64,000 nucleotides of DNA from the IMG/VR virus record IMGVR_UViG_3300047159_000064; one strand, 5' to 3'. This document shows positions 1-63,966 of this stretch, piece by piece. Below the pieces are notes generated by a model that did no database searches, had not been told where the DNA came from, and worked only from the letters and a program-made list of their open reading frames with translations. Every line of letters starts with the position of its first letter. The stretch's first letter is position 1. The translations under genes were made by a program, and so were the position numbers. This DNA comes from a virus (lineage: Duplodnaviria > Heunggongvirae > Uroviricota > Caudoviricetes).

Positions 1-356
1 AAAAACTGGCGTTCTGGCGTAGAATTGTCGCTGGCAGCTCAAGTGTCTACTTTCGTCAGCAGCTGCTTTACGGTCGTGACGTACTCATTGGCTTTGGCTT
101 TGACTATGGCAGGGTCTTCGCTTTCTATTTGGCCTGACAGCACTATGGTTTTGTCCAGCAGCGAATCGATGTTGTCTACGAGCTCAGATTTTTCGTCGGA
201 GCTCGTATTCGCGCTGTCGCTCAAAAACGACAAAAGCTCGCTCGACTGCCTTTGCAGCTGAGCGGCTATGGTAGCATAATCTATCGTCGGATCATCCTCA
301 TTGAGCATGAATCTCTCGCAGAGCGTGAATTTTCTATGCTGTTGCATGTCTGTCAT
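1..356 (-). CDS. Hypothetical protein, partial (runs off the window edge); in-frame TGA at 41-39 read as Trp
   Basis: ATG 356 directly follows the TAA of the upstream gene; the frame stays open past the TGA (KVDT*AASDNSTPERQF) to position 1. Confidence 0.6.
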
Positions 357-357
357 G

Positions 358-867
358 TTAATCGTCTCCATCATTATCGACGAGAAGCGTGTTGGTCTGA
401 TCGCTGAAATCCGTATGCAGGGCAGGTTCGTCGACGTCTTCGTATTCCGGCGCTATTTCGCAGGCTATCGACGCAGGATAAACCATTATCGTCTGCATGC
501 TTATCACCCTGAATACCCTTCCTTCGGCTTGGTCTAAGCCGCTTGGAACGATGAACAGCGCGCCGACCTGCAGCCCAGGCAGGTCATATGGGACGTGAAT
601 TATCGAAGACGTTTCTTGCAGTTCTGCGACCCAGCCCATTTTTTTCAGCGTTTTCTGATCTGGATGTTCCTGGAATATGCAGCCTACAACAACGCCTTTT
701 TTATAGTCGGCGTCTAAATCTCCATGCGAATCGTAAGTAGATTTGCTTAGAGGCTCTTTGTAAATGCAGTTTATGCCGATGAGCTTGGTCATCTGCTTGA
801 AGTATTTTCTGTGCAGCTTTATGTCTTGGTTGTACAATATGCCGTAGTCATTTGGCGAATCTGACAT
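358..867 (-). CDS. Putative neck/head-completion protein (T4 gp14-like)
   Basis: 169 aa ORF in the head module, preceded by the late motif at 948-956; call rests on size, position and weak resemblance. Confidence 0.45.
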   Translation of the reverse strand: MSDSPNDYGILYNQDIKLHRKYFKQMTKLIGINCIYKEPLSKSTYDSHGDLDADYKKGVVVGCIFQEHPDQKTLKKMGWVAELQETSSIIHVPYDLPGLQVGALFIVPSGLDQAEGRVFRVISMQTIMVYPASIACEIAPEYEDVDEPALHTDFSDQTNTLLVDNDGDD

Positions 868-947
868 TTATTTATACCTCCAATCCATCGCAGCTTGTCA
901 TATGAATTGCGCCGGCCCGTTTTTGCAGGTCGGCGCTGTTTAGCAAT

Positions 948-956
948 TAATTTAGC
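948..956 (-). promoter_or_regulatory. Candidate late promoter GCTAAATTA
   Basis: Exact copy, upstream of 867. Confidence 0.6.
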
Positions 957-3900
957 GCTGCTTGCCGGTATCGCCCTTTACGGCGACGCCTTCTATGCAG
1001 TAATCGTAAGACAGGCCGTTGGTCAGCAGCTTGGTGCCGGCCGCGTCTGTTTTGCAGCTGAGCGCGAATTTTCCGTTCTCGCCTAAGCCGTCGTTTGTTC
1101 CGAGAAGCAGAATGCCATCGTCGGCTTTCTTGGCTTCCGTGAACACGTATTTAGTGCCTTTTATCTGGCCTGATTTGAATTTTATTTCGCCGTTTATCGT
1201 AAGCTGCTCATCGAGCAGATCGCAGTCTTTCAGCGTGAATGATTCAACGTTGTCGTAGACGTTCGTCAACGACTCGGTTATGCTTTTCTGCAGCAGCGCT
1301 TCGTCGATGTCCTCTACCTTCGCCAGCTCTTCTTTCACTCCGTCGGCTTTAGGCGCTTCCAGCGCTTCGCCGATTAGGGCTTTCGTGTCGCGCGCGGTTA
1401 GCTTTCCGCTCTCGTACGTCAGCACAGGGGCAGAATCTTTTTTGTCTGCGTGTATCGTCGCTTTGCCTAACGCGCTAACTTCTTTGGCGTAATCTATGGC
1501 TGTCTGAAGCTTCTTTACTTTGCGCCACAGCGCTGTTTTGTCGGATACCTTTATTATCCAGGCTTCGGCTTTGGCCTCAAGCGCCGTTACTTGCTCCGGT
1601 TTAAGCTCGGCTGGCTCTTCAGCCGGCTTCGTCGGCTCGGCGTCCGCCGTCGGCTCTGTCGGTTTTGTAGCCGGCTGAACAGTCGGCGTCGACAGCTCTT
1701 CTTTTGATTTGCTTACGTAGTCGACGGAATTGTCATGTACTATCTTGCCGTTCGCCAGCTCGATAAGCCTGAAGCCCGCGACCATGTCTTTTCCTTCGCC
1801 GCTGATATAGGTGGCTACCGCGACCGGCCCGCTTGTTATCGCTTTGGCGGCTTTTATGGCGTCTAGCAGCTTGTCGTGATCGTATACTTTTCTTTCGCTC
1901 GGCGTCACTACGCACCATTTTCCGTCCCATTTGCCGCTGGCGAGCATCGCGTCTACGCTGATCGTCTCGCCTTGCGGGCGCTTGACGTCTACGGCTTTGT
2001 TGTAAATCAAAGACGGGTCTTCCGATATCTGGCCCTTTTCGTACGAGGTGTACAGTATCTTCTTTCCGCCTTTTATCCCGTAGATGTCGGCCAGGCCTTT
2101 GCCTGGATTCTTAGACCAGGTTACGGCCGCGTTTCTGGCGTCGCTTATTTTGCTGAAATGCGCGCTGTCGGCTTGATGCAGTCTTTTCGGATCGAGGTCC
2201 GATGCTGGTTTATCGAATTCCACTACGTCGAATCCGCCGTCGAATTCGGCGTCCGCGTCTTTGTCCGTCATTGCGTTTTTAATGCCTTGGAACGGGTGCT
2301 TGATGTCGAATTCATTCAGTTTCTCTTCGTTTAGCTTTTTGTCTTCATCATCGTCGTCATCAGCCTCGTCAGACTTTGCGTCTGCTTCATCGTCTTCAGC
2401 TTTATCGCTTTCGATGGGTTGATTAAAAGAATCGAACGGATCGATTTTGCTTATGTCGTCATTATCGCCGCCGTCTTCATGTTCGTCGTCTTTGTCGCTG
2501 TTGTGATGGCTTTCGCCGTGCTCGTCGTCATGTTCATCTTCATCATGCTCATCGTCGTCGTGTTCGTGCTTGTCGCTGTCATGATCTTCTTCGTCATGCT
2601 CATGCTCGCATTCGCCGTTTGCGCAATCGGCTTCGCAGCTGTCGCACTTAGGGGCGCCATCGGCTTGCGCCGCGTCGCCTTCTGTCGCTATGGGCGCTGC
2701 TGCAGCGGTATCTTCCGCCGTCTGTTCGATTGGAGCGGCAGCGGGCTCCGCAGGAGTTTCCGCTGGCGCTACGGCCGCGGCAGGAACCTCGACAGGGGCT
2801 ATGTCTGCCGTCGCTGCGGGGAGAGGATCTGCTGCCGGCGTCGCAGAGGCGCTTTCCGCAGGCTGCTCTCCGTCTTTCGGCGTAGTGGTCTCTACCGATA
2901 CGACAGGCGCTTTGCCGTCTTTCATGTCGATTTGGACCGTCACTTGCTTGCCCTCGTTAAGCGATTTGTTGTTCGAGGCGTTGGCCGAATCGGCCTTCGC
3001 TTTGTTTTCTGTCTTATTGAGGCTTTCGTTTGCATAGTTGTCGAGCTCGCTGTCGTCGATGCCGTCGTATTCATGGCCTTTTCTTACCATCGTGAAATGA
3101 TCTATCGGCGTTTCTTTGCCTTTGCTGTCGAGCTTAGATACGTAGACGATTATGACTTTCTCGTTTTTGTCCAGCAGGTCGTTTTCGACGGCCTTTAGAT
3201 CGCCGACTTTACCTGTTTTGTCGTCATAGGTCCGCTTGGTGACTTCTGCGCCGGTCGCGTCTGTGCCGTAGATGACGTATTTATCGCCTTTTGACTCGAG
3301 CATTTCTTCGCTTTCGTTAAGCGATTTGTTCTCTGAACCGTTCTTAGAGTCATTCTCTGATTTCGCGGCCGAGGCGTTAAGAGATTCTTTCTTTTCTTTG
3401 TCTTCGCCTTCGGCGTCGGCGGCCGGCGTGAGGTCAAGCTCATCGGCTGCTTTGCCGTCGTCTGCCGGCTTCTCTTCTTTCGTCTCTGGCTCAGTCGCAG
3501 CAGCATCATCCGCCGGCTTTTCTTCGTCTGCCGGCTTTTCCGCGCCTTCGTCTTTAGGCTCGTCGAAGCTTAGATCGAGCTCATTGTCGTCTTTGTCTCC
3601 GCTCTCTTCGGCGGCGACGTATTTGTCTTTCTCTTCTTCGGATACGGAATCTACCTTGCCGACGACCGTATAGCCGGATGCGTTGCCGCAATGTTGGCAT
3701 ACTTCGTTGACGTTGACTACCGTATCGTCGTCTTCAGACGGCTCGATGTCCTCAGGCTTTTTATAGAAAAGCGTCATGCACTGCGGGCATTGGATTATGA
3801 CTTTTCCGACGTAAGAAGGCTGCAGATCCTCAGGCGTTTCTGCGTCCAGGTCCACGATCTTCTCGATTCTGGCCAATTTGGCTTTGGCGACTTCTTCTTG

Positions 3901-4113
3901 TCTGTCGTCTTTGGCTTTTTCAAGGTCTTTCTGATCGCCTACGTTGTAGTAGTCCTCAACGAGCTCGTCAGTTTTGAGCTTGTCTGACTTGAACGCCTCT
4001 TGCATGTCGTCGACGTTAGGTCTTATGCCGCCTTCTGCTTTCGGCGTTTCGATGTCGTCCAGCGCCTTGAATGCGGCGTCAAGATCGAACTTTGTTACTG
4101 GTTCTTTATTCAT
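952..4113 (-). CDS. Large acidic low-complexity protein with CxxC..CxxC zinc ribbon and His/Asp-rich tract; putative internal head protein
   Basis: 1053 aa; CPQC...CQHC; CDSCEADCANGEC followed by EHEHDEEDHD...; many LxE(S/A) motifs. Confidence 0.7.
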   Translation of the reverse strand: MNKEPVTKFDLDAAFKALDDIETPKAEGGIRPNVDDMQEAFKSDKLKTDELVEDYYNVGDQKDLEKAKDDRQEEVAKAKLARIEKIVDLDAETPEDLQPSYVGKVIIQCPQCMTLFYKKPEDIEPSEDDDTVVNVNEVCQHCGNASGYTVVGKVDSVSEEEKDKYVAAEESGDKDDNELDLSFDEPKDEGAEKPADEEKPADDAAATEPETKEEKPADDGKAADELDLTPAADAEGEDKEKKESLNASAAKSENDSKNGSENKSLNESEEMLESKGDKYVIYGTDATGAEVTKRTYDDKTGKVGDLKAVENDLLDKNEKVIIVYVSKLDSKGKETPIDHFTMVRKGHEYDGIDDSELDNYANESLNKTENKAKADSANASNNKSLNEGKQVTVQIDMKDGKAPVVSVETTTPKDGEQPAESASATPAADPLPAATADIAPVEVPAAAVAPAETPAEPAAAPIEQTAEDTAAAAPIATEGDAAQADGAPKCDSCEADCANGECEHEHDEEDHDSDKHEHDDDEHDEDEHDDEHGESHHNSDKDDEHEDGGDNDDISKIDPFDSFNQPIESDKAEDDEADAKSDEADDDDDEDKKLNEEKLNEFDIKHPFQGIKNAMTDKDADAEFDGGFDVVEFDKPASDLDPKRLHQADSAHFSKISDARNAAVTWSKNPGKGLADIYGIKGGKKILYTSYEKGQISEDPSLIYNKAVDVKRPQGETISVDAMLASGKWDGKWCVVTPSERKVYDHDKLLDAIKAAKAITSGPVAVATYISGEGKDMVAGFRLIELANGKIVHDNSVDYVSKSKEELSTPTVQPATKPTEPTADAEPTKPAEEPAELKPEQVTALEAKAEAWIIKVSDKTALWRKVKKLQTAIDYAKEVSALGKATIHADKKDSAPVLTYESGKLTARDTKALIGEALEAPKADGVKEELAKVEDIDEALLQKSITESLTNVYDNVESFTLKDCDLLDEQLTINGEIKFKSGQIKGTKYVFTEAKKADDGILLLGTNDGLGENGKFALSCKTDAAGTKLLTNGLSYDYCIEGVAVKGDTGKQR

Positions 4114-15351: not shown

Positions 15352-17145
15352 CTACATTGGTTCCTCCTTAATGTCTTTTAATTCGTCGTCTTCAGTAAGG
15401 TACTGAGCTTCTTTGTAAGTGCCATTTTTAAGCAATAGCTTATGATTTGGCGTGCAATGTATCACGGTTCCGTCTTCTAGGCTTATATGATATTCTTCAG
15501 AAGCCACAGTTGTCGGTTTTACCGTGCAGGTGTTGCTTATAGTCTTATTTCCGCTGTCATCTACAGAAATTACCTTTATCGGCTTGTCTACAAGGTCTTC
15601 TAATTTTTTATTGCCTTCTGTGGTCAGTATCTCTGTTTTGCCATCTAGACAAAACAAAGCACGGCCGACTATATGCCTGTTATTAGAGCCGAATATCAGC
15701 TCTATGCCTTTCGGCGGCTGCCATTGCGGATTAGTGCGGCTCGCGTTAAGGTTGCCGTGCGTCATGAATCACGGAGAATTCTGTATATGCTGCTGCAGCT
15801 TGTCCCAGCCTACGCCTTGCGCGGCGTCTAGGGTGATGTTGAGCATCGAGAAAGTTATCTTGTCGTTCGGCATCATGCCGTAATAAGTATAAGGATCTTT
15901 GAGGCATAGCATGCGATACAGCAGATAAAGCATGGCCACGACGGCTATTTCAGTGTTATGAGTCACGATGAAATCGTTGGTCAGGTAAAGATGCTCTTCG
16001 CTGTTTATGTAAATGCACTGGCAGAAGTCTTCGCCGACGTATTCTACGTCCGTTATGTATCTGTAAGGCTCGAACGCTTTGTCGTTCAGCCGCGCCTTTT
16101 TATCGTCCGTAGTGAAGGGGCAGATCGTTTTCGGCAATTTTATGGTTATGAGGATTTTGCTGTTCCTGTGCAGCGGCTTGTATTCTTTGGCGTGACATGT
16201 GCCGCCGAGCGATTCTACTAGCGTTATAAAATCTTTTTTCAAAGCTTTGTTTCGCGTGCATAAGAATATGTAAGAACCGTCTTTTCCGACGTATCCAGCA
16301 GAATCCATCATACCTTGCATGACGGCTATTCTCGTCTCTTTGTCGTTGAATAGGAAATCATCCGTTATGTGCAGGTCTTCTCCGCCTGCTTTTTTGCCGG
16401 CTTTTCCTAATGAAAGGCCGAACAGATACGGATTGACGAAAATGTTTTTATGCGCGAATTCTATCGGCGCGGTCATCGGTATTTTGTACCTGTGGTTATT
16501 GCCGCCGTCGTTTCTGCATTTCAGATTGCGGCTGTGATCCAGCAGCTCTTTGGTCTTTATGGTCTTCCAGACTTTGCTTTTGGTGTTGTATACGGTCCAA
16601 AGATGCTCGTCGCAGCAAAGCGTGGACGTTCCGTCTGAGAACGTCACTTTGCATATCATCATCTTACCCTGCGGGAAAATGCCGAGGATGTCATGAAGCT
16701 TTCCGTCGCTGCCGAATACCTTGTCTGATATCGACAAATCGCCCATTTTCTTATAGCCTGTTTCAGTCAGCACCAGCGAGCTCAGCGGCTGCGCTTTGCC
16801 TAAGCCGATAGCTCCGGTTAGTATCAACGTGTTGTAGCTGGTCGTGAGATTGTCGGGGAAAAGCTTATGCAGCATGTTTCTCCAATAAGGGAAAAGAGTG
16901 CACTGACGTTCGCCGGTGAACTCGTCTGTTCTTCAGATGTCATGCCCAAGATAGTCGTCGTTGTCTAAGAATTCGTCTATGGCGACGGGTATTTCTTCGA
17001 AATCTGAGTATTTGAGATCTTCTAAAGTGTCCGATTCGCCTTTTTGCGAGTATTCTTTTAGGATGCGCAGCGCCAGCTCTTTCTCTTGCGGAGAAAGCTT
17101 TTCCAGGGCCTCTATGTTTATGCTAGGAGCTTTTTGGTTTTCCAT
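15352..17145 (-). CDS. terL: Terminase large subunit, N-terminal part (597 aa with 2 TGA=Trp, a cis intein and IntN)
   Basis: Three track ORFs share one frame, joined by TGA at 16935-16933 (GHDI*RTD) and 15771-15769 (NSP*FMTHG); Walker A GAIGLGK|T. Confidence 0.85.
15355..15651 (-). mobile_element. Split intein N-fragment (IntN, 99 aa)
   Basis: CLDGKTEILTTEG (block A), IHCTPNHKLL (block B), ends at TAG 15354-15352. Confidence 0.8.
15955..16794 (-). mobile_element. Cis intein (280 aa, Ala1-type) with a degenerate LAGLIDADG domain, inside the TerL Walker A
   Basis: AQPLSSLVLTETG...CCDEHLW...FIVTHN|T; endonuclease blocks PYLFGLSLGKAG and QGMMDSAG. Confidence 0.9.
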
Positions 17146-27706: not shown

Positions 27707-28330
27707 TTAGTCCATCGGCAATATGCCGGTGCACTTAGGATAATTGCGGCAGCCGTAGAACAGTTTGCCGAATCTGCTTCTGCGGACGACCATAGGCCCG
27801 CCGCATTTGGGGCATTTTTTGTCTGAATCAACGGAATCTTCAGCGCCAGACGGCGCTTTCGCCTCTTTGTTCGCCTTTATGGAGCCTTCCAGCCCATCGT
27901 AGAACTCTTTCAGGAACGCCAGCTCCGCCGATTTGCCGTTGGCTATCTTGTCTAGGTCGTCTTCCAGCTCTTTCGTGTAATCGTAGTTGATCAGCCCAGA
28001 AAACGCCCTGTCCAAAAACGCGGCGAGCTCCTTGCCCTTCTCCGTCGGGACTATGCACTTGTTCTCAAGGGTGCAATAGCCTCTCGTCGGGCTTAATACG
28101 GTATCGACGATCGTCGCATAGGTGGACGGACGGCCGATCTCTCTTCTCTGAAGCTCTTTTATCAGCGTCGATTCCTTGTATCTCGGCTTAGGCTGCGTGG
28201 CCTTCTCCGTCTCGCTCAGCGAGGCGTCTTTCAGCTTTTCGCCTACGGCGAAATCCACCGTCGTTCAATCGGCTAGCGATTCGCTTTGAGAATCCTGCTC
28301 TTCCGCAGGCTGAATGTCTTGTTCTTCCAT
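27707..28330 (-). CDS. topA: Type IA topoisomerase, C-terminal part with zinc ribbon; TGA at 28267-28265 read as Trp
   Basis: GIGRPSTYA-like EIGRPSTYATIV, CPKCGGPM...FYGCRNYPKC; ATG 28330 preceded by GAGG. Confidence 0.75.
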
Positions 28331-28342
28331 GTTTGTTTGCCT

Positions 28343-29618
28343 CTAATCCAATGTTCTGTATCCGGCCGATTTTAGCCGCTTGAACTCGGTCTCGAAGTTA
28401 TGGCCTTCGTTGGTTATCTTAAGGCTCTTGCATTCGAATATCGCTGGCGTCATCAGGCTTTGCATGCGTGGTCTTCCAGATCAAGGCGTATACCTTGACG
28501 AGGAGATCGTTCTGCTCTTGCCTTGCTAGCAGCTCAGGCGTGAGCTTCGGATCCGTGCAATGGATGGCCTCGTGGCCAGCCTGCTCGCCTTCTGCGTGCT
28601 TCGCGGCGCGTTTGCCGTAATACAAAGCCTCTCCGTACTTGTCGCAGATGAATCTTTTGGCGTCTTCGACGAACGAATCGTTGAGCTCCGTGGTATCTGT
28701 TCTGTGGTATGAGATAAGCCCTGCCTCGAACAGCTTCTGGGCGCATGACATCGCGTCTTTGACTTTCAGGCCGAGCTTGTTCGCGGCGTCTTGCTGGAAC
28801 GCCGCGGTGCAGAACGGCGGCTTCGGGTTCTCCGCTTTGTCGCGCTTGTCTATGGCGCCGACGACGAAATCGCCTTTCGCGCATTCGGCTTTGACGGCGT
28901 TTACCTCGTCGATAGTCTTGAGATGGTTTACAGGCGCTTCGTCGGTGCCGCAGTATTTCGCCTTGAATTCGACGCCGTCTTTGACGAAGCTGAGATACAA
29001 GTCGTAATAGCGCTCCGGCACGAAGCTGTCTATCTCTTTTTCGCGGTCGACGATGAACTTAAGGCCGATCGATTGGCATCTGCCGACGCTTTTGGCGCCG
29101 ACGCAGTCTCTGGCTATCGGGCTTAGCGCGAAGCCGATCATCTTGTCGACGACCTGCCTGGCCTCTGCGGCGTCGATTAGGTTGTCGTCGAGCTTCGTCG
29201 CATGGTCTATTGCGTATTCTATGGCGTCTTTCGTTATGCTCTGATAGGTTATTCTGTAATATTCCGAATCTTTTATCCGAAGGACCTGCTTGACGTGGTA
29301 TCCGATGCTTTCGCCTTCGCGGTCGCCGTCTGTCGCGATGAGGACCAAATCGGTCTTCGCCAGCAGCTCTTTAAGGTTGTCAACGACCTTCTGCTTGTCG
29401 TCGGCTATCGCGTAGGTGACCTGAAAGTCTTTGTCGGGGTAGATGCCGGTGTTTTTGTAGCTGCCTCTGACGTTCTTTATCTCGGTGAGATGCCCGACCG
29501 TCGCCGCCACCATGGCGTGCTTGTAGCCGAGCTCTTTCATTATCGCCGACACGTGCGAGCACTTGTTAGGGCTCTCGACGATCACCAGTATCTTTGCGTC
29601 TTTGTCTATTTTGCTCAT
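28343..29618 (-). CDS. topA: Type IA topoisomerase, N-terminal part (one apparent indel near 28470)
   Basis: IVESPNK, ATDGDREGE, SVGRCQS, catalytic ISYHRTD, QAGHEAIHCT; ends GYRTLD-TAG. Confidence 0.85.
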
Positions 29619-48525: not shown

Positions 48526-49728
48526 TTACTTCTCCAGCTTGCCTTCTAGGTCGAAGTTAAGGTCTTCTCCGTCTTTAAGGCAGGCGTCGAGCACGTCTCT
48601 GCTGAACTCCGGGTATTTGGCGTACATCTTCTCGAACGCCTGCTCCCTCGGCATGCCTTTGACGCCTTTTTTGGCGTCGCCTTCTATCAGCTTGCTGAGC
48701 TCTTCCCTCAGCGTGTCGGCGACTTCGTCCGTGCCCCAGCGCGACACGACGGCAGGATCGCAGGCCATCGGGATCGAGATGTCGTTCTTGACGGCCCCGA
48801 TCATCACCTCAGGCAGGCGTTTCTTCACCTGCTCTGCGTAGACCTCTGGGCATTCGACGAGAACCTCGTCGTGTACGGTGATTATCAGCCTGGCGCCGTA
48901 TTTGAGCAGCTCTGGATCGCGCGTGATGTCTATCATGGCTTTCTTGGTGACGGACGCGGCGGAGCCCTGGATTCTCGCGTTGAAGCTCTGGCGCTCGGCT
49001 TGGGCTATGCGGCCTGTGTTGGCCTGGAGCACGACGCCGTCATGCGTCAGCGCGGTCAAGGCCAACGCCTCGTATTCTCTGTTGGATCTGAGCGATTTGG
49101 CGCGGGCTACGTATTCCTGCAGCGTAGAATCCGTCATAGGTCTGTTCTTGCAGGCCAGTATCGGATTGAACGACTGGTTGATCAGCTTGTCAGGATCTTT
49201 GTATTTCGCTTCATACGATGGAAGGAAATAATCCGGCAGATGGCGTCTACGTCCGAAAGCGTCTTCGACGTATCCGTGCTCTTTGAGCGCCTGATGCGTC
49301 TTGTCTATGGCCTCTTTTACCTTCGGGAAATCCTTGAAGAAGTTGTCCATCAGCTCCTGGCCTTCCTCAGGGGTCTTGCCCATTCTAGTTCCGGCAGTCC
49401 TGGCGCTCATGCCGTAGCAAATGGCCAACAGCATTACTTTGGCGGCCTTGCGGCGCTTCTTGCCTGCTTCGTAGACGTTGGTCTTATGGCCGCAGATCAC
49501 CTTTTTGCCGTCTATCTCGATTTCTGTGCCTTCTTTGTAGTATTCTAGGTTGTCTTCGTATTTGTTGTTGAACATGGACGCAGCGATCACGCAATAAAGG
49601 TCTTTGCCTTCGGCGTAAGCCTTCGCCATGTTGGGATCGCCGCTCAGGAACGCCGTAAGGCGCGGCTCCTGCGCGGAGAAGTCGGAACCGACTATCTTGT
49701 ATTTAGTCCTCGTATTCAAGCTTCTCAT
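48526..49728 (-). CDS. polA: Family A DNA polymerase, C-terminal part (motifs A, B, C)
   Basis: GSDFSAQEPR, RKAAKVMLLAICYG, IQGSAA, TVHDE; own SD AAGGAGG. Confidence 0.9.
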   Translation of the reverse strand: MRSLNTRTKYKIVGSDFSAQEPRLTAFLSGDPNMAKAYAEGKDLYCVIAASMFNNKYEDNLEYYKEGTEIEIDGKKVICGHKTNVYEAGKKRRKAAKVMLLAICYGMSARTAGTRMGKTPEEGQELMDNFFKDFPKVKEAIDKTHQALKEHGYVEDAFGRRRHLPDYFLPSYEAKYKDPDKLINQSFNPILACKNRPMTDSTLQEYVARAKSLRSNREYEALALTALTHDGVVLQANTGRIAQAERQSFNARIQGSAASVTKKAMIDITRDPELLKYGARLIITVHDEVLVECPEVYAEQVKKRLPEVMIGAVKNDISIPMACDPAVVSRWGTDEVADTLREELSKLIEGDAKKGVKGMPREQAFEKMYAKYPEFSRDVLDACLKDGEDLNFDLEGKLEK

Positions 49729-49744
49729 GATCTGCCTCCTTGCG

Positions 49745-51916
49745 CTAATACGCCAATATCTGCCAAGACCTGGAATCCTGGTCGTATTTCCTTCCGCGGT
49801 ATTCCACCGGCTCTCCGTCGACGATTATCCTGTCGCCTTGAGCCAGATCCTTGCAGTATTTCCAGCCGGTCTCTGTCTCGATCTCGTCCGTCTCGCTGAC
49901 GACGAACGGATCTGTCTCGGCGTCGGCTTTGGCCGTCCCGTACTTCTCAGTCGCCTTGAACAGCATTCGGACTTCGCCTCCGGTGCCTGATGAGGCGCCA
50001 GGGATGTTCTGGATGTTGATGCCGCTGACGACGACAGGCGTATCTGTCGCCTCGTCGTAGTATTTTATCTTGCCGCCTGACGAATAGCGCCCGGTGTCAG
50101 TGCCGAGTGAATTGAGGTGGAATCTGATTCTGTGATCCGGCCAATGCTGCGCCAGCTCAGGGATGACGTCTATGTACGTCGTGACGAGCTTGACGATGGC
50201 GCGTCTGTCCAAAATGGCCTGGCAGAGCGACCTGGCGGCCTCTATGCCCGCCTCGAACGCCGGACGCATCTCTTTCTCGAGCGTCTTGAGATCGTCTGGG
50301 GTGATGTCTTTCGTCAGTTGCACCGAGAACGTCTTTATCTTGCCGGAATCTCCGGCGTCGTCGCTTTCGTCCTCGTCGTCCTCGTCGGCGTCGTAGTCCT
50401 CGTCGTCTTCGTCTACGTCCATCGAATAGTCGGCCGGTTTCGCGCTTCTCTGAGGCTGCGCAGGCTCGTCGTCTTCAGACTGAAGGATAGGGGCCGCCTC
50501 GGCCACTTTCATGCGGCGGATCGCCTCTAAGACGTCGGCCATCGTGCGCTTGACTGCGTTAGACACGTATTGGCCTGGATCTTTCAGCTTGTCGGCAAGG
50601 TCTTGAAGCTCGGCTTCGCCTGTGCCTCTGCCGTTGTTCTTGACGTTGATCCTCAAGACGTCGTAGAACAGGATCGCCAGCTGCGAAGGCGACGCCAGAT
50701 TGATGTCTTCGTCTATCTGGAGCATCTTAGGCCGGCCTTCTTTGTAGAAGCGGCCGGTCGGCAGCTTGTTGCCTGCTTTGTCTGTCTTGAACGTGCCGTT
50801 CGGGTTCTGCTCGTACTCGGGGATGGTGTAGGTCGCGGTCAGCTTAGCCGGCGTCATCTTCGATTTCTTAGAAGGGAAAACGCGCGGCTTGTCCGTCGCC
50901 GAAGGAAGCAGCTTCCAATAGGCCACCAGCGGCTTGAGGTTGTCGAGCTTGGCTTTGATCTTGTCGTCTATGGCGGCCAATTGCGCGTTGTATTTGTCTT
51001 TGAGCTTCGCGCCGAACGCTTCGTCGACCGTGATGCCTGCCAGCTCCATTTCGGCCGTCACGACGACTATCGGCATCTCTATGCCCATGAAGATGTTCTC
51101 GTAAAGGCGCTTGTTCTCCAGTTTGTCGAAAAACGGCTTCTCAAGGCGCTCGTAGACTTTGTCTGTCATCATGGCGTCTGTGGCGGCGTAAAGGGCGAAA
51201 ATATCCGGATCAACGTAAGCGTACTGGATGTTCTCGAACAATTCCTCTATGTCGTATTTCTCTTGCTCCGGATCGATGTATTTGGCGTAAATGTACTTAA
51301 GTTTCGCGCCGGCGTCCTTGAATTCGTTCTCGTCCATCAGCCTGGCGCCGACGATTGTGTCCCAATTGGGAGGGACGGCGACGCCGCAGGTGCATTTGAG
51401 CACTTCGTAATCGAATTTGCCGTTGTGCATGACGACGAAGGTATTCGCCGCCAAGACGCGCTTTAGCTCTTCCTGGACGTCGCTTTCCTTCAGCTGCCAC
51501 GGAAGCCTTTGCTTCGTCGCGTAATCGACGTGGTTGATAGGCACGTAAGCCTGTTTCAGGCCCGGCGCGTAAAAGCAAGGCCCCATGATCTTGCAGGTCA
51601 CCGGATCGAGGCTGTTGTTGGTTTCTGTGTCGATGTCTATCCGCCCGGTGGCTATGCAGCTAGAAATATAGTCATGGAACGCCTGTTTCGTCTTTATGAC
51701 GATCACATTGTCTTTCTGCCTGCCTAATACGGCCAAAACGCGCTGGTTGATGATAGCCAAGCGCTCTGGGATCGACATGGCTTTGGACTTAAGCACCTTG
51801 CCTATGTCCTCTTCCTTGTCTGGCGTCACTTTGCCTTTGGCTTTCTTTACGAGCCCTTTGACGCCCGGCGAATTGACGACGATATCGAAATCGTCGCCGA
51901 ATAATCCTTCTGACAT
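49745..51916 (-). CDS. polA: Family A DNA polymerase, N-terminal part (3'-5' exonuclease and thumb) with acidic insert and Hint-like tail
   Basis: IDTET, HNGKFD, YAATDA, TGRYSS, INIQNIP; no 5' nuclease domain. Confidence 0.9.
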   Translation of the reverse strand: MSEGLFGDDFDIVVNSPGVKGLVKKAKGKVTPDKEEDIGKVLKSKAMSIPERLAIINQRVLAVLGRQKDNVIVIKTKQAFHDYISSCIATGRIDIDTETNNSLDPVTCKIMGPCFYAPGLKQAYVPINHVDYATKQRLPWQLKESDVQEELKRVLAANTFVVMHNGKFDYEVLKCTCGVAVPPNWDTIVGARLMDENEFKDAGAKLKYIYAKYIDPEQEKYDIEELFENIQYAYVDPDIFALYAATDAMMTDKVYERLEKPFFDKLENKRLYENIFMGIEMPIVVVTAEMELAGITVDEAFGAKLKDKYNAQLAAIDDKIKAKLDNLKPLVAYWKLLPSATDKPRVFPSKKSKMTPAKLTATYTIPEYEQNPNGTFKTDKAGNKLPTGRFYKEGRPKMLQIDEDINLASPSQLAILFYDVLRINVKNNGRGTGEAELQDLADKLKDPGQYVSNAVKRTMADVLEAIRRMKVAEAAPILQSEDDEPAQPQRSAKPADYSMDVDEDDEDYDADEDDEDESDDAGDSGKIKTFSVQLTKDITPDDLKTLEKEMRPAFEAGIEAARSLCQAILDRRAIVKLVTTYIDVIPELAQHWPDHRIRFHLNSLGTDTGRYSSGGKIKYYDEATDTPVVVSGINIQNIPGASSGTGGEVRMLFKATEKYGTAKADAETDPFVVSETDEIETETGWKYCKDLAQGDRIIVDGEPVEYRGRKYDQDSRSWQILAY

Positions 51917-59395: not shown

Positions 59396-61018
59396 CTATT
59401 CGGCGTCTTGCTTAAGCTGCGCGAATTCGTCTAGCGCCTTGCAGTTCTTGTTGAGGCCGGGCATCATCATGACGCTTCCGCAAAGCGGAATGACGAATCC
59501 TGCCCCTGCCGCGAGCCATACGTCTTTGACGTAGATCTTGAAGCCTTTCGGGCGGCCGAGCAGCTTAGGATCGTCGCTGATGCTGAGCGGCGTCTTCGCG
59601 ACGACGATGTAGCTGTTTCCGTAGCCCATCCGCTCATAGAGGTCCATATTGCTTTTCGCCAAATCGCTGTATACGACTTCGTCTGCGCCGTACACCTGCT
59701 TGCAGATCTTGTCCATCTTGGCGCTAAGGCTCTCGGAAAGATCGTACAGCGGATGATACTCGTTTTTCGCTGCGCGAATCGTAGACAGCACGGTCTCCGC
59801 CAAAGCTTTTGCGCCTTGGGCGCCGTCGACCACGGCCGTGCTTACGGCCGCGGGATATCCGTTGGCTTCGCACCAGCCTAAAAGCCATTTGATCTCGTTG
59901 TCAGAATCCTGGGCGAATTTGTTGATCGCTATGACGAACGGAACGCCTTGGCGCTTGCAGGTGTCGATATGGCACTCCAGATTGCATACGCCGTTCTTAA
60001 GCGCGTCGATGTTCTCTATCGACAGCTCTTCGAAAGGCTGGCCTCCGTGCGACTTAAGCCCTTTGACAGTGGCGACCAAAACGGCTACGGAAGGCTTGAT
60101 GCCAGCCATAGGGGCAACGACGTCAAGCGCTTTCTCAAGTCCGAGCGAGCCGCCGAATCCGAATTCTGTGATGACGTAATCGCTGAGCTTCAGCGCCATT
60201 TTCGTCGCGATGAACGAATTGGTGCCGCATGAGATATTGCAGAACGGCCCTGCTGAGATGAGGACCGGATTGCCGCCGACGGTCTGAACCAAGTTAGGGC
60301 TCAGCGCATGCTCCATGAGAAGCATGACGGAATTAGACATCTTCAAATCGGCCAGATAGACTGGCTTGCCGTCTTTGGTGTAGGCGATGAGCATCTTGTT
60401 GACTCTGGCTCTGAAATCTTCCTTCGATGTCGACACCGTCCACACAGACATCAGCTCGTGGGCTACCGTGATGACGTATTCCGCTTTGTGCGGCGCGGCC
60501 TTTTTGTCGTCCTGCGCCACAGTCACGCTGCGCAGAGAGCGATCGTTCATGTCGACGGCGCGCTTCCAGACGATGCGATCCGGATCGATGTTAAGCTCGT
60601 TTCCCTGATAGATGTGGTTCTCGATGACCGCGCTGACGAGGTTGATTGCGCTAGTCAATGCGTGAAAATCCCCGGTGAAGTGGAGCGAGATGTCGTTGAT
60701 AGGCACCAATCCCGCTTTGCCGTTGCCGACGCAGTTGCCTTTGACGCCGAAGACAGGGCCTAAGCTGCCTTGCCGAAGCGTCAGCATCGAATTCAGGCCC
60801 AAGCCCCTGATGCCGTCTTGCAGGCCGATGGCCGTGGTCGTCTTGCCTTCGCCGAGCTTAGTGGGCTCGATGGCGCTGACGATGATCCAATGGCCGTCAG
60901 GCCGATCCTTCAGCTCGTCCATGTAAGACAGGTCTATCTTGCCCATCTCCCATCCTACGGGGTAAACGTACTTCTCAGGCACGCCTAATTCTTTAGTCAG
61001 CTCTAAAATGTTCTTCAT
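59396..61018 (-). CDS. fhs: Formate--tetrahydrofolate ligase
   Basis: GEGKTTT, GPVFGVKG, LHFTGD, GPFCNI, MMMPGL. Confidence 0.95.
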   Translation of the reverse strand: MKNILELTKELGVPEKYVYPVGWEMGKIDLSYMDELKDRPDGHWIIVSAIEPTKLGEGKTTTAIGLQDGIRGLGLNSMLTLRQGSLGPVFGVKGNCVGNGKAGLVPINDISLHFTGDFHALTSAINLVSAVIENHIYQGNELNIDPDRIVWKRAVDMNDRSLRSVTVAQDDKKAAPHKAEYVITVAHELMSVWTVSTSKEDFRARVNKMLIAYTKDGKPVYLADLKMSNSVMLLMEHALSPNLVQTVGGNPVLISAGPFCNISCGTNSFIATKMALKLSDYVITEFGFGGSLGLEKALDVVAPMAGIKPSVAVLVATVKGLKSHGGQPFEELSIENIDALKNGVCNLECHIDTCKRQGVPFVIAINKFAQDSDNEIKWLLGWCEANGYPAAVSTAVVDGAQGAKALAETVLSTIRAAKNEYHPLYDLSESLSAKMDKICKQVYGADEVVYSDLAKSNMDLYERMGYGNSYIVVAKTPLSISDDPKLLGRPKGFKIYVKDVWLAAGAGFVIPLCGSVMMMPGLNKNCKALDEFAQLKQDAE

Positions 61019-62769: not shown

Positions 62770-63966
62770 TTATTTCTCCTCTTTCAAACGGAATTCGATG
62801 GCGTTGCGAAGGTACTTGACGTACTCAGGATCCTCGCACATCGTCTTGCCGTCGCAGTCGCTCAATTTGGCGACCGGCCGACCGTTGACGTACTGAAGCT
62901 TGATGACGATGTTAAGCGGCGTTACGCCGGAATCGTTCATGACGAACGTGCCGATGCCGAAAGCGACTTTTGTCCGATACTTGAAGTACGCGTAGATTCG
63001 CTGCGCTTTGTCGAAATCGAGCGAATCGCTGAACAAAAGCGTCTTGGTCGTCGGATCGATGCCGAGCTTCTTGTAATGGGCGATAATCTTTTCGCCCCAT
63101 TCGAACGGATCGCCGCTGTCGTGGCGGACGCCTGAATAGACCCGAGCCTGAAGGTAATCGAAATCCTTCAAGAACAAATCGGTCGTGATGGTGTCGGTCA
63201 AAGCGGTTCCGTTGTCGCCGCGGTATTCGTCGAACCAGTCTTCGAGCGCCGCGTGGTTGGTGTAAGCCAACGGGATAGTCGGAATGCCCTGATACATCTG
63301 AACGAATTCGTGGGCGTAGGTGCCGATTGGCTTCATGCCGTATTTCATGGCGAAATAGACATCCGACGTGCCGACGCAGTTAGGGAGATCCTTAAGCTGA
63401 GACAAAGCCCAGTCCTGGAAGTCGCCGCTGAAACGGCGGCGGGCGCCGAAGTCCGCGAAGCTGAACGTGTACTTGCCAGATTTGAATCCTTCGATTTTGT
63501 CGAGAAGGCGCTTTTTGGCTTCTGCGACGAGCGAATCGTAGGAATCGGCGTACATGAATCTGAAATAGACCTCGCTGACGATCTCGAGCAAGTAGATCTC
63601 GAACTGCATGGCGCCGTAAAGCGGGCCTGTGACCTCGATGGACAGCTTGCCGGCGTCGCTCAGCTTGACGTCTACGTAATCGCGGAGCGGGCGCCAAATG
63701 CGCAAAAACTCGATGTAGTCCGGCTTGAGGAAGCGAATAGTGTGAAGATAGGCGATTTCTTCTTTGGTGAAGGTCATGGTGCAGAGGTTGTCGACCTGCG
63801 CGTTGATCTCGTCTAGCATCTCTTTAGTGAAGACGATGCCTTCGTTGCGGCATTTGAAGACGTATTTGCCTGAAAGGTTGGTGTGCTTGTGGAACATGAC
63901 CTGGTTCATGTTGAACTTATAGAGGTCGGTGTCGAGCAGGCTCTTGACGATCGGGCGGAATTTCAT
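62770..63966 (-). CDS. pncB: Nicotinate phosphoribosyltransferase; frame stays open to the window edge
   Basis: LLDTDLYK, ADFGARRR, GTYAHE, RHDSGDP, FSDSL, GIGT, AKLSD. Confidence 0.93.
   Translation of the reverse strand: MKFRPIVKSLLDTDLYKFNMNQVMFHKHTNLSGKYVFKCRNEGIVFTKEMLDEINAQVDNLCTMTFTKEEIAYLHTIRFLKPDYIEFLRIWRPLRDYVDVKLSDAGKLSIEVTGPLYGAMQFEIYLLEIVSEVYFRFMYADSYDSLVAEAKKRLLDKIEGFKSGKYTFSFADFGARRRFSGDFQDWALSQLKDLPNCVGTSDVYFAMKYGMKPIGTYAHEFVQMYQGIPTIPLAYTNHAALEDWFDEYRGDNGTALTDTITTDLFLKDFDYLQARVYSGVRHDSGDPFEWGEKIIAHYKKLGIDPTTKTLLFSDSLDFDKAQRIYAYFKYRTKVAFGIGTFVMNDSGVTPLNIVIKLQYVNGRPVAKLSDCDGKTMCEDPEYVKYLRNAIEFRLKEEK

Follow-up and report, generated by a model that had tools for sequence, protein, structure and literature searches.

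In a 64,000-nucleotide segment of a wastewater phage genome (Caudoviricetes; IMG/VR record IMGVR_UViG_3300047159_000064, referred to as the window), the family A DNA polymerase (PolA) is encoded by two open reading frames (ORFs; positions 48,526 to 51,916) that lie in different frames and are separated by 16 nt; the upstream ORF ends in a tail related to the Hint (intein) domain that carries none of the residues used in protein splicing. We think it probable that this is a two-chain PolA in which a shrunken, splicing-dead Hint module acts as a non-covalent clasp, the arrangement having descended from a decayed fractured gene. A preliminary description of this DNA, made by a model from the letters and a list of ORFs, had proposed that a split intein was domesticated into a dimerization module whose beta-sheet may be completed by the first residues of the C-terminal half; this interpretation is supported by the analyses described here, each of its testable elements having come out as proposed.

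The N-half (723 aa; 49745-51916; this ORF and all other window features given below are on the minus strand) contains a 3'-5' exonuclease domain (residues 72-260; 51137-51703; Pfam PF01612, E 7.9e-14), the thumb, the first palm strand, a linker and the Hint-like tail. Its thumb/palm segment (residues 561-656; 49949-50236) covers positions 72-158 of PF00476, and the C-half (400 aa; 48526-49728) matches the remainder of this family (E 7.8e-49); with both the exonuclease and the polymerase domains recognized by Pfam, the two ORFs together are a member of the PolA family. The C-half holds motif A (KYKIVGSDFSAQEPR; 49660-49704), which contains the catalytic Asp and reads GSDFSAQEPR at residues 14-23, the fingers with motif B (KKRRKAAKVMLLAICYGMS; residues 90-108; 49405-49461), and palm motif C (TVHDEVLVE; residues 284-292; 48853-48882); these agree with the D..S..E, RR.aK....YG and HDE patterns of motifs A, B and C, respectively, and all three motifs are invariant in alignment A2. 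A strongly acidic, low-complexity insert of ~45 residues in the thumb region of the N-half (approximately residues 480-525; 50342-50479) is missing from shorter N-half relatives (581-610 aa).

The thumb/palm segment, which reads INIQNIP further upstream, ends in the strand RMLFKAT (residues 650-656), and the N-half then continues for 67 residues to its stop. These residues comprise a variable linker (657-670; 49907-49948), modeled as a confident beta-strand in an unsplit relative and as disordered in the model of the tail alone, and the tail itself (671-723; 49748-49906), which resembles the Hint N-lobe, has an E-x-E-T..GW...DL..GD core and lacks Cys1. The TAG stop (49745-49747) coincides with a beta-hairpin turn in the module. 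Within the 16-nt spacer (49729-49744), a Shine-Dalgarno sequence (AAGGAGG; 49735-49741) precedes the ATG of the C-half by 6 nt, and the C-half opens with an 8-residue leader, MRSLNTRT (49705-49728), that is predicted to be the last strand of the module; the leader has no HN motif, and the intein-1 position has no Cys. The break between RMLFKAT and motif A, the block-A-like stretch that begins at 49906 without Cys1, and the out-of-frame C-half start with its dedicated Shine-Dalgarno sequence had all been pointed out in the preliminary description, and the ORFs, translations and coordinates hold.

The split is real, conserved and widespread. A 901-bp region around the junction is letter-identical, without indels, in 14-27 kb contigs from three DNA runs of bioreactor sludge or wastewater (three studies, dated 2021, 2023 and 2025), and a 495-nt contig from a metatranscriptome library, in which DNA carry-over is possible, also spans the junction collinearly; this contig differs by eight substitutions, and the seven listed by position all fall at third codon positions of the C-half. 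No continuous ORF was seen in either the DNA or the RNA-library contigs, and the earlier view that the break is not an indel artefact is borne out by the relatives as well: 113 of the best 120 N-half relatives (581-723 aa) end in the same tail, the other seven being one truncated sequence, five unsplit sequences of ~1000 aa with the module in frame, and one that is insert-free. P0011 (1011 aa), unsplit and without the module, reads RMLFRAKPGYKLVGSD. Hundreds of C-half relatives were found (383-446 aa), nearly all of which start M-x(1-4)-[VI]-K-T-R-T-x-Y-K-[LI]-[VI]-G-S-D. The spacer between the halves is 2 nt in contig L004, 16 nt in the window, 19 nt followed by a GTG start in L002, and an entire gene in L003; every C-half checked, across these spacer types, has its own ribosome-binding site. 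Because the junction spacers differ and each C-half has its own ribosome-binding site, a conserved frameshift device is excluded; programmed frameshifting and readthrough were likewise rejected, since the length, frame and content of the spacer vary among relatives. An intron was rejected too: Rfam found none at the junction (E-value mode) or across the whole window, and the 16-nt spacer is too short to hold one. Thus, the phage PolA is confirmed as two ORFs and, on the strength of its sequence, should be a genuine two-chain enzyme.

A Hint origin of the tail is well supported: profile searches establish its homology to the N-terminal part of Hint/intein domains, and fold comparisons are consistent with this. 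The tails are only ~33% identical to each other, with L3, E29, E31, G35 and D46 kept in at least 90% (tail numbering counts from R650). A trimmed tail profile (A4, 52 positions), searched against 1.84 billion (1.84e9) protein cluster representatives, gave 274 matches at E<=1e-3 and 28 at E<=1e-10. Among the best 148 of the 274, ~114 hold the domain at the extreme C-terminus of the protein, and the remainder hold it internally in longer proteins. All ten of the mid-length C-terminal matches that were checked are pieces of PolA; all 18 of the internal matches that were checked carry Pfam intein/Hint domains (library-wide E 4e-10 to 4e-5), including inteins of terminase large subunits, multi-Hint proteins and an intein of a SNF2 helicase. 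Apart from polymerase tails, the profile thus has no significant relatives other than Hint/intein proteins among the matches checked. In the A4 alignments, the tail pattern E-V-E-T-x-x-G-W-K-x-x-x-D-L-x-x-G-D falls on the block A region at the intein start, both in inteins of the Cys1 type (CYDDKTEVLTEDGWK...) and in those of the Ala1, class 3-like terminase (TerL) type. When a profile of 56 tails was compared with PDB sequences, four intein sequences ranked first, the nearest solved relative being the gp41-1 intein with a marginal E of 0.023.

Fold comparisons also bring up inteins first. The nine best matches of the AlphaFold model of the window tail (pLDDT 79) in an all-against-representatives fold search are all Hint domains (eight inteins and PI-SceI domain I; Z 5.3-4.2, root-mean-square deviation (rmsd) 1.7-2.0 A over 52-55 residues); with MchDnaB-1, Z is 5.3 and the rmsd 1.7 A over 52 residues, and residue 23 of the tail model superposes on intein residue 1. 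The module of the unsplit relative P0080 is modeled with eight strands at pLDDT 96-98, and its 12 best matches are all inteins or bacterial intein-like (BIL) domains (Z 6.9-4.4), the first unrelated fold appearing at Z 4.2. Both the beta-fold and the block A pattern (T..G....L..GD) of Hint domains are present, in merely about half of a full Hint domain. A tblastn search of GenBank phages with the tail gave no match.

To judge from its residues, the module cannot splice because every splicing residue is missing. The position-1 nucleophile is absent, its equivalent being Val23 in the window tail with Pro21 at the site of the NCY variants; this position varies across the tail family, a minority of which keep a Cys two residues earlier. 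The Thr-x-x-His of block B is absent: the N-half stops before it, and the leader reads NTRTKY and has no His. The module has no block F Cys for the class 3 route; blocks F and G and the terminal (His-)Asn are also absent, the C-part consisting of 8 residues that end in TRT. The +1 residue is Lys in the window and Leu, Arg or Gln in relatives, that is, not Cys, Ser or Thr. The non-splicing character proposed earlier is thereby upheld. As to homologues, the expectation that the same split would recur was met abundantly; versions with an intact C1 and HN were not found at this exact site, and the search returned no intact-intein relatives of more than 1266 aa, which is weak evidence.

The position of the break relative to the fold was read from an alignment (A3) of tails, leaders and unsplit forms together. 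In this alignment, the unsplit forms read K-T-Y-L-L-A-L / E-D-S-G / T-V-L-L-R-T-R-Y-K-L-I-G-S-D; split N-halves end directly after the Y-x-[LI]-x-V strand, and C-halves begin at the [VI]-K-T-R-T strand. The module is therefore broken at a hairpin turn, which makes the leader its last strand. R7 of the leader is invariant, and T6 and T8 are kept in at least 90%. We then predicted the complex of the whole C-half with tail residues 18-74, from which the RMLF palm strand was left out, in three runs. The ipSAE, which is the model's own confidence, was 0.66 in all three runs and 0.00 for the best control; among reference cases, 58 of 80 solved complexes attain this mark, as do 2 of 110 mismatched pairs. 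At least 92% of the contacts are shared between the runs, with a partner pLDDT of at least 88. The predicted interface brings residues 2-9 and 294-297 of the C-half (the latter adjoining motif C) against residues 20-31, 36, 38, 48-52 and 71 of the tail, and R7 of the leader contacts tail residues 28, 29, 31 and 36. These predictions support docking of the leader on the tail; together with the hairpin-turn break, they agree with the suggestion that the first residues of the C-half (2-9) complete the beta-sheet.

The PolA junction of relatives also contains homing-endonuclease genes, a context absent from the preliminary description. In L003, a 605-aa ORF with a PD-(D/E)xK-like core (weak MTES_1575 and DUF7487 matches; L003:2301-4118) fills the gap from the N-half stop to the ribosome-binding site of the C-half. 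The sole GenBank phage record with this arrangement (MT839691.1, positions 1-4095; L006), an unannotated fragment of a human-faecal phage, has at the junction an ORF, itself frameshifted, with LAGLIDADG-like sequence motifs, as judged by eye. L002 (4284-6764) represents an abundant lineage whose N-half is 587 aa long and whose polymerase comes in three or more pieces: a further break divides the C-half, the first part of which (148 aa) closes with a second tail recognized by A4 (E 2.9e-5, local search) and is followed by a GIY-YIG gene. A tail directly follows DYSAQE in P0354. The middle pieces P0303, P0341 and P0367 consist of a C-intein (...HNFIA..VHN/C) at PNLQ, ~25 extein residues and a Cys-less, dead tail; true split inteins were met solely at this neighboring PNLQ site, ~20 residues upstream of the module site. 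In the window, as in a fractured gene, the host gene is divided between two neighboring ORFs and the break lies within an intein-type module; these ORFs have only the 16-nt spacer between them, without a free-standing endonuclease.

The same relatives offer several smaller observations. A live split intein and a dead one stand ~25 residues apart in P0303, P0341 and P0367. The polymerase of MT839691.1 is also cut at PNL/QNIP, with a ~260-nt non-coding gap, and its 87-aa middle piece is made up of ~17 extein residues and the tail. The motif B region of L002 is interrupted once more before the last piece. In the C-half of L003 (4186-4300), motif A is interrupted by an in-frame TAG and is three codons longer (DYSAQE-stop-PE-PRL), which could be decay, recoding or a further break. 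Dozens of the representatives that match A4 are tiny ORFs of 57-90 aa (e.g., P0259, P0262 and P0276) that contain almost only the tail and whose first residue is the Met of RMLF or that of (L to M)QNIP; these could be genuine mini-pieces, or genes truncated where their contigs end.

In a tree of the polymerase core, whose root is uncertain, split forms dominate; the five unsplit forms with the module are in one clade with two split forms, and insert-free P0011 is nested within the tree as the sister of a split form (support 99/93). Tail identity and core identity are nearly uncorrelated (Spearman 0.12), as in pairs with core and tail identities of 97% and 48%, or of 86% and 31%; such discordance would be expected if endonucleases drove the gene conversion of a cassette. 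The cultured relatives Dp-1, MS1 and phiCTP1 match from motif A onwards only, and the tail and leader are absent from them.

Two known systems resemble this PolA. Dassa et al. 2009 (PMC2677866) described fractured genes, in which the two halves bear a split intein and flank a free-standing homing endonuclease gene, in eight host enzymes, among which PolA is not listed. Like these, the window PolA is a replication gene broken in situ at a conserved site, with a Hint piece at the end of the upstream ORF, and relatives hold a free-standing endonuclease gene exactly in the gap. Unlike these, the window PolA has no splicing residues, an N-part of ~53 residues, a C-part of one 8-residue strand and no endonuclease, and its halves must remain separate chains. 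The second system is the nrdA gene-in-pieces of phage Aeh1, arranged as nrdA-a / mobE / nrdA-b, for which Crona et al. 2011 (PMC3045599) report unique C- and N-terminal tails that are essential for activity. A mobile endonuclease broke up an essential enzyme there and presumably did so here, and in both cases the tails at the break are missing from unsplit homologues (P0011, Dp-1, MS1 and phiCTP1 in the case of PolA). In that account the NrdA tails serve protein-protein assembly instead of splicing, the same role that structure prediction suggests for the window PolA; the abstract does not describe the NrdA tails as intein-derived, whereas the PolA tail is a recognizable Hint remnant and has a predicted strand-complementation geometry. 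By analogy, then, the PolA case appears to combine the genomic layout and ancestry of fractured genes with the non-splicing assembly logic of Aeh1 NrdA. Searches of the open-access literature returned no description of such an arrangement for PolA.

With canonical mini- and split inteins (MchDnaB-1, 6riy; gp41-1, 6riz; Prp8, 6owu; AceL NrdHF, 6zgq), the module has in common the block-A-type pattern and, as far as it extends, the fold (Z 6.9-6.1 and rmsd 1.9-2.2 A over 62-64 residues); it is about half their size and lacks the catalytic Cys/Ser1, TxxH, block F and terminal HN. In some engineered split inteins the C-fragment is very short, e.g., an IntC of 6 residues in the Ssp GyrB S11 design, and these splice. 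In such designs, as in the PolA module, one short C-terminal strand complements a larger N-fragment; the PolA module would do so with no ability to splice.

The mechanism that we favor, a non-covalent clasp, would operate as follows. A shrunken, splicing-dead Hint (intein-derived) module sits immediately ahead of motif A, where a palm beta-hairpin has its tip, and the gene break lies inside it, so placed that the end of the N-half (~53 residues) corresponds to the N-terminal lobe of the intein and the 8-residue leader of the C-half (..NTRT) would supply the last beta-strand. The halves would be translated separately, each from its own ribosome-binding site; the leader strand would then dock on the tail, with invariant Arg7 facing the near-invariant Glu29 and Glu31. 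Re-formation of the mini-domain would bring the RMLF strand and the motif A strand together and close the palm, no peptide bond being made. The presumed ancestor is a fractured gene that comprised an intein and a free-standing homing endonuclease; the window lineage would have lost the endonuclease, just 16 nt being left. Such a clasp function is likely.

Several observations weigh against this mechanism or its evidence. Foldseek ranks inteins first among PDB entries with E of only 0.06-0.1, which is not significant, the fold-search Z-scores are all below 8 and graded middling by the tool, and scans of single tail sequences against Pfam and NCBIfam gave nothing significant, the best being Hint_2 at E 0.015 in 2 of 56 tails. 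The placement of the leader differs: by sequence alignment it resembles the hairpin before block B, and by the chain ranges of the superpositions it is near the C-terminal end of the intein, at the block G position; both are possible because the Hint fold has internal symmetry. The ipSAE of the complex may have been helped by solved split-intein complexes, and the alignments were made in this analysis; we know of no solved split-intein complex that is split at this place. Finally, the insert-free and unsplit P0011 exists, so the module is dispensable when the enzyme is one chain, and other naturally split polymerases (T4-like gp43 and the PolB of M. thermautotrophicum) are reported to assemble without intein pieces. 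The last two points would also be expected if the tail and leader were neutral leftovers of an insertion, with no role in assembly, and the halves joined via the native palm/fingers/thumb interface alone; the free exchange of tails between lineages, which suggests weak co-adaptation, fits this as well. We regard such neutrality as unlikely: the key tail residues and the TRT of the leader are kept across very divergent relatives, the module is retained and confidently folded in unsplit forms, the predicted contacts are specific, with controls at 0.00, and Aeh1 NrdA is a precedent in which insertion-derived tails are essential.

The retention of the module in frame in unsplit relatives could instead reflect a gain of function, that is, a mini-domain kept for binding another part of the replisome (for instance the clamp-like protein, the helicase or DNA) and not, or not only, as a clasp; its location on the surface, at the tip of the palm hairpin, and the neighboring genes for a clamp-like protein, a primase and DnaB would suit such a role. 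We consider this quite improbable, the only conserved interface seen being the predicted one with the leader; furthermore, a break-associated role fits better than a site-specific one because the module also marks a second, unrelated break site of the gene. That the module is a non-canonical split intein that still ligates the halves into one chain is very improbable. It is homologous to Hint, a Cys lies close to where the start is expected in the NCY variants, some classes of intein lack Cys1 (the matches included class 3-like TerL inteins), and P0303, P0341 and P0367 have true split inteins with HN/C ~20 residues upstream; against these stand the Val/Pro at intein-1, the lack of the block B His, block F and terminal Asn, the +1 Lys, a C-part of just 8 residues, and a variable 14-residue linker before the module that offers no conserved junction. 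The least probable alternative, to which we give almost no credence, is that one continuous ORF is masked by an indel in the assembly, by gene decay or by programmed frameshifting. The frame of the C-half stays open for 32 codons upstream of its ATG, and a topoisomerase IA gene in the window does look frameshifted; the junction is nevertheless the same in three independent DNA data sets and collinear in the RNA-library contig, the listed variants of which (7 of 8) are confined to third codon positions, and the gene is likewise split in more than 100 relatives, where 2, 16 or 19 nt or an entire gene separates the halves and a dedicated ribosome-binding site is present in each case.

If the non-covalent clasp is correct, a mobile element would have a third way, besides RNA splicing and protein splicing, to sit harmlessly in an essential gene: the intein loses its chemistry and keeps its self-association, and the host enzyme becomes permanently two-chain. 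The evolution of inteins would gain a concrete end state in the shrinkage of Hint to ~53 + 8 residues, and protein engineers would have a small natural complementation pair to try. This is not a curiosity of one genome, the 274 cluster representatives matched by the tail profile being mostly polymerase pieces from public metagenomes; the arrangement also accounts for the routine annotation of these phage polymerases as two or more separate 'DNA polymerase' genes. A broader proposal, which we offer tentatively and rate at slightly less than an even chance, is that tail and leader belong to a mobile family of splicing-dead Hint clasp cassettes that travel with free-standing homing endonucleases and occupy several sites in phage polymerase genes (upstream of motif A, inside or beyond it, and upstream of motif B), the resulting two to four pieces reassembling non-covalently. 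In that case, the module would be a natural, minimal strand-complementation heterodimerization tag of ~53 + 8 residues.

All genes in the window are on the minus strand, and a T4-like major capsid protein, a portal and a prohead protease are among them. The replication module encodes an IstB-like loader, DnaB, a Toprim primase, a 304-aa ORF, PolA, a beta-clamp-like protein, a RecU-like protein and RecA; the split, unsplit and insert-free forms of PolA all share the gene order DnaB-primase-X-PolA-clamp. A peptide-pattern search of IMG/VR gave no close relatives, and blastn of the locus against GenBank phages gave no match.

Other window genes deserve brief mention. The topoisomerase IA gene (27707-29618) is in pieces: a 399-aa ORF contains Toprim and profile positions 2-245, a second ORF of 183 aa contains positions 300-410 and a zinc ribbon, and the missing middle can be read in other frames (~28260-28480); this suggests frameshifts, a pseudogene or another type of break, and Rfam found no intron in this region. 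A 368-aa ORF without a Pfam family (15772-16932) gives a weak, partial match to the tail profile (E 5.8e-4, positions 13-35, local six-frame search) and probably has merely the GW..DL..GD pattern in common with the tail. Genes for a full-length formate-tetrahydrofolate ligase (59396-61018; E 6e-195) and for a nicotinate phosphoribosyltransferase (62770-63966) are possible auxiliary metabolic genes.

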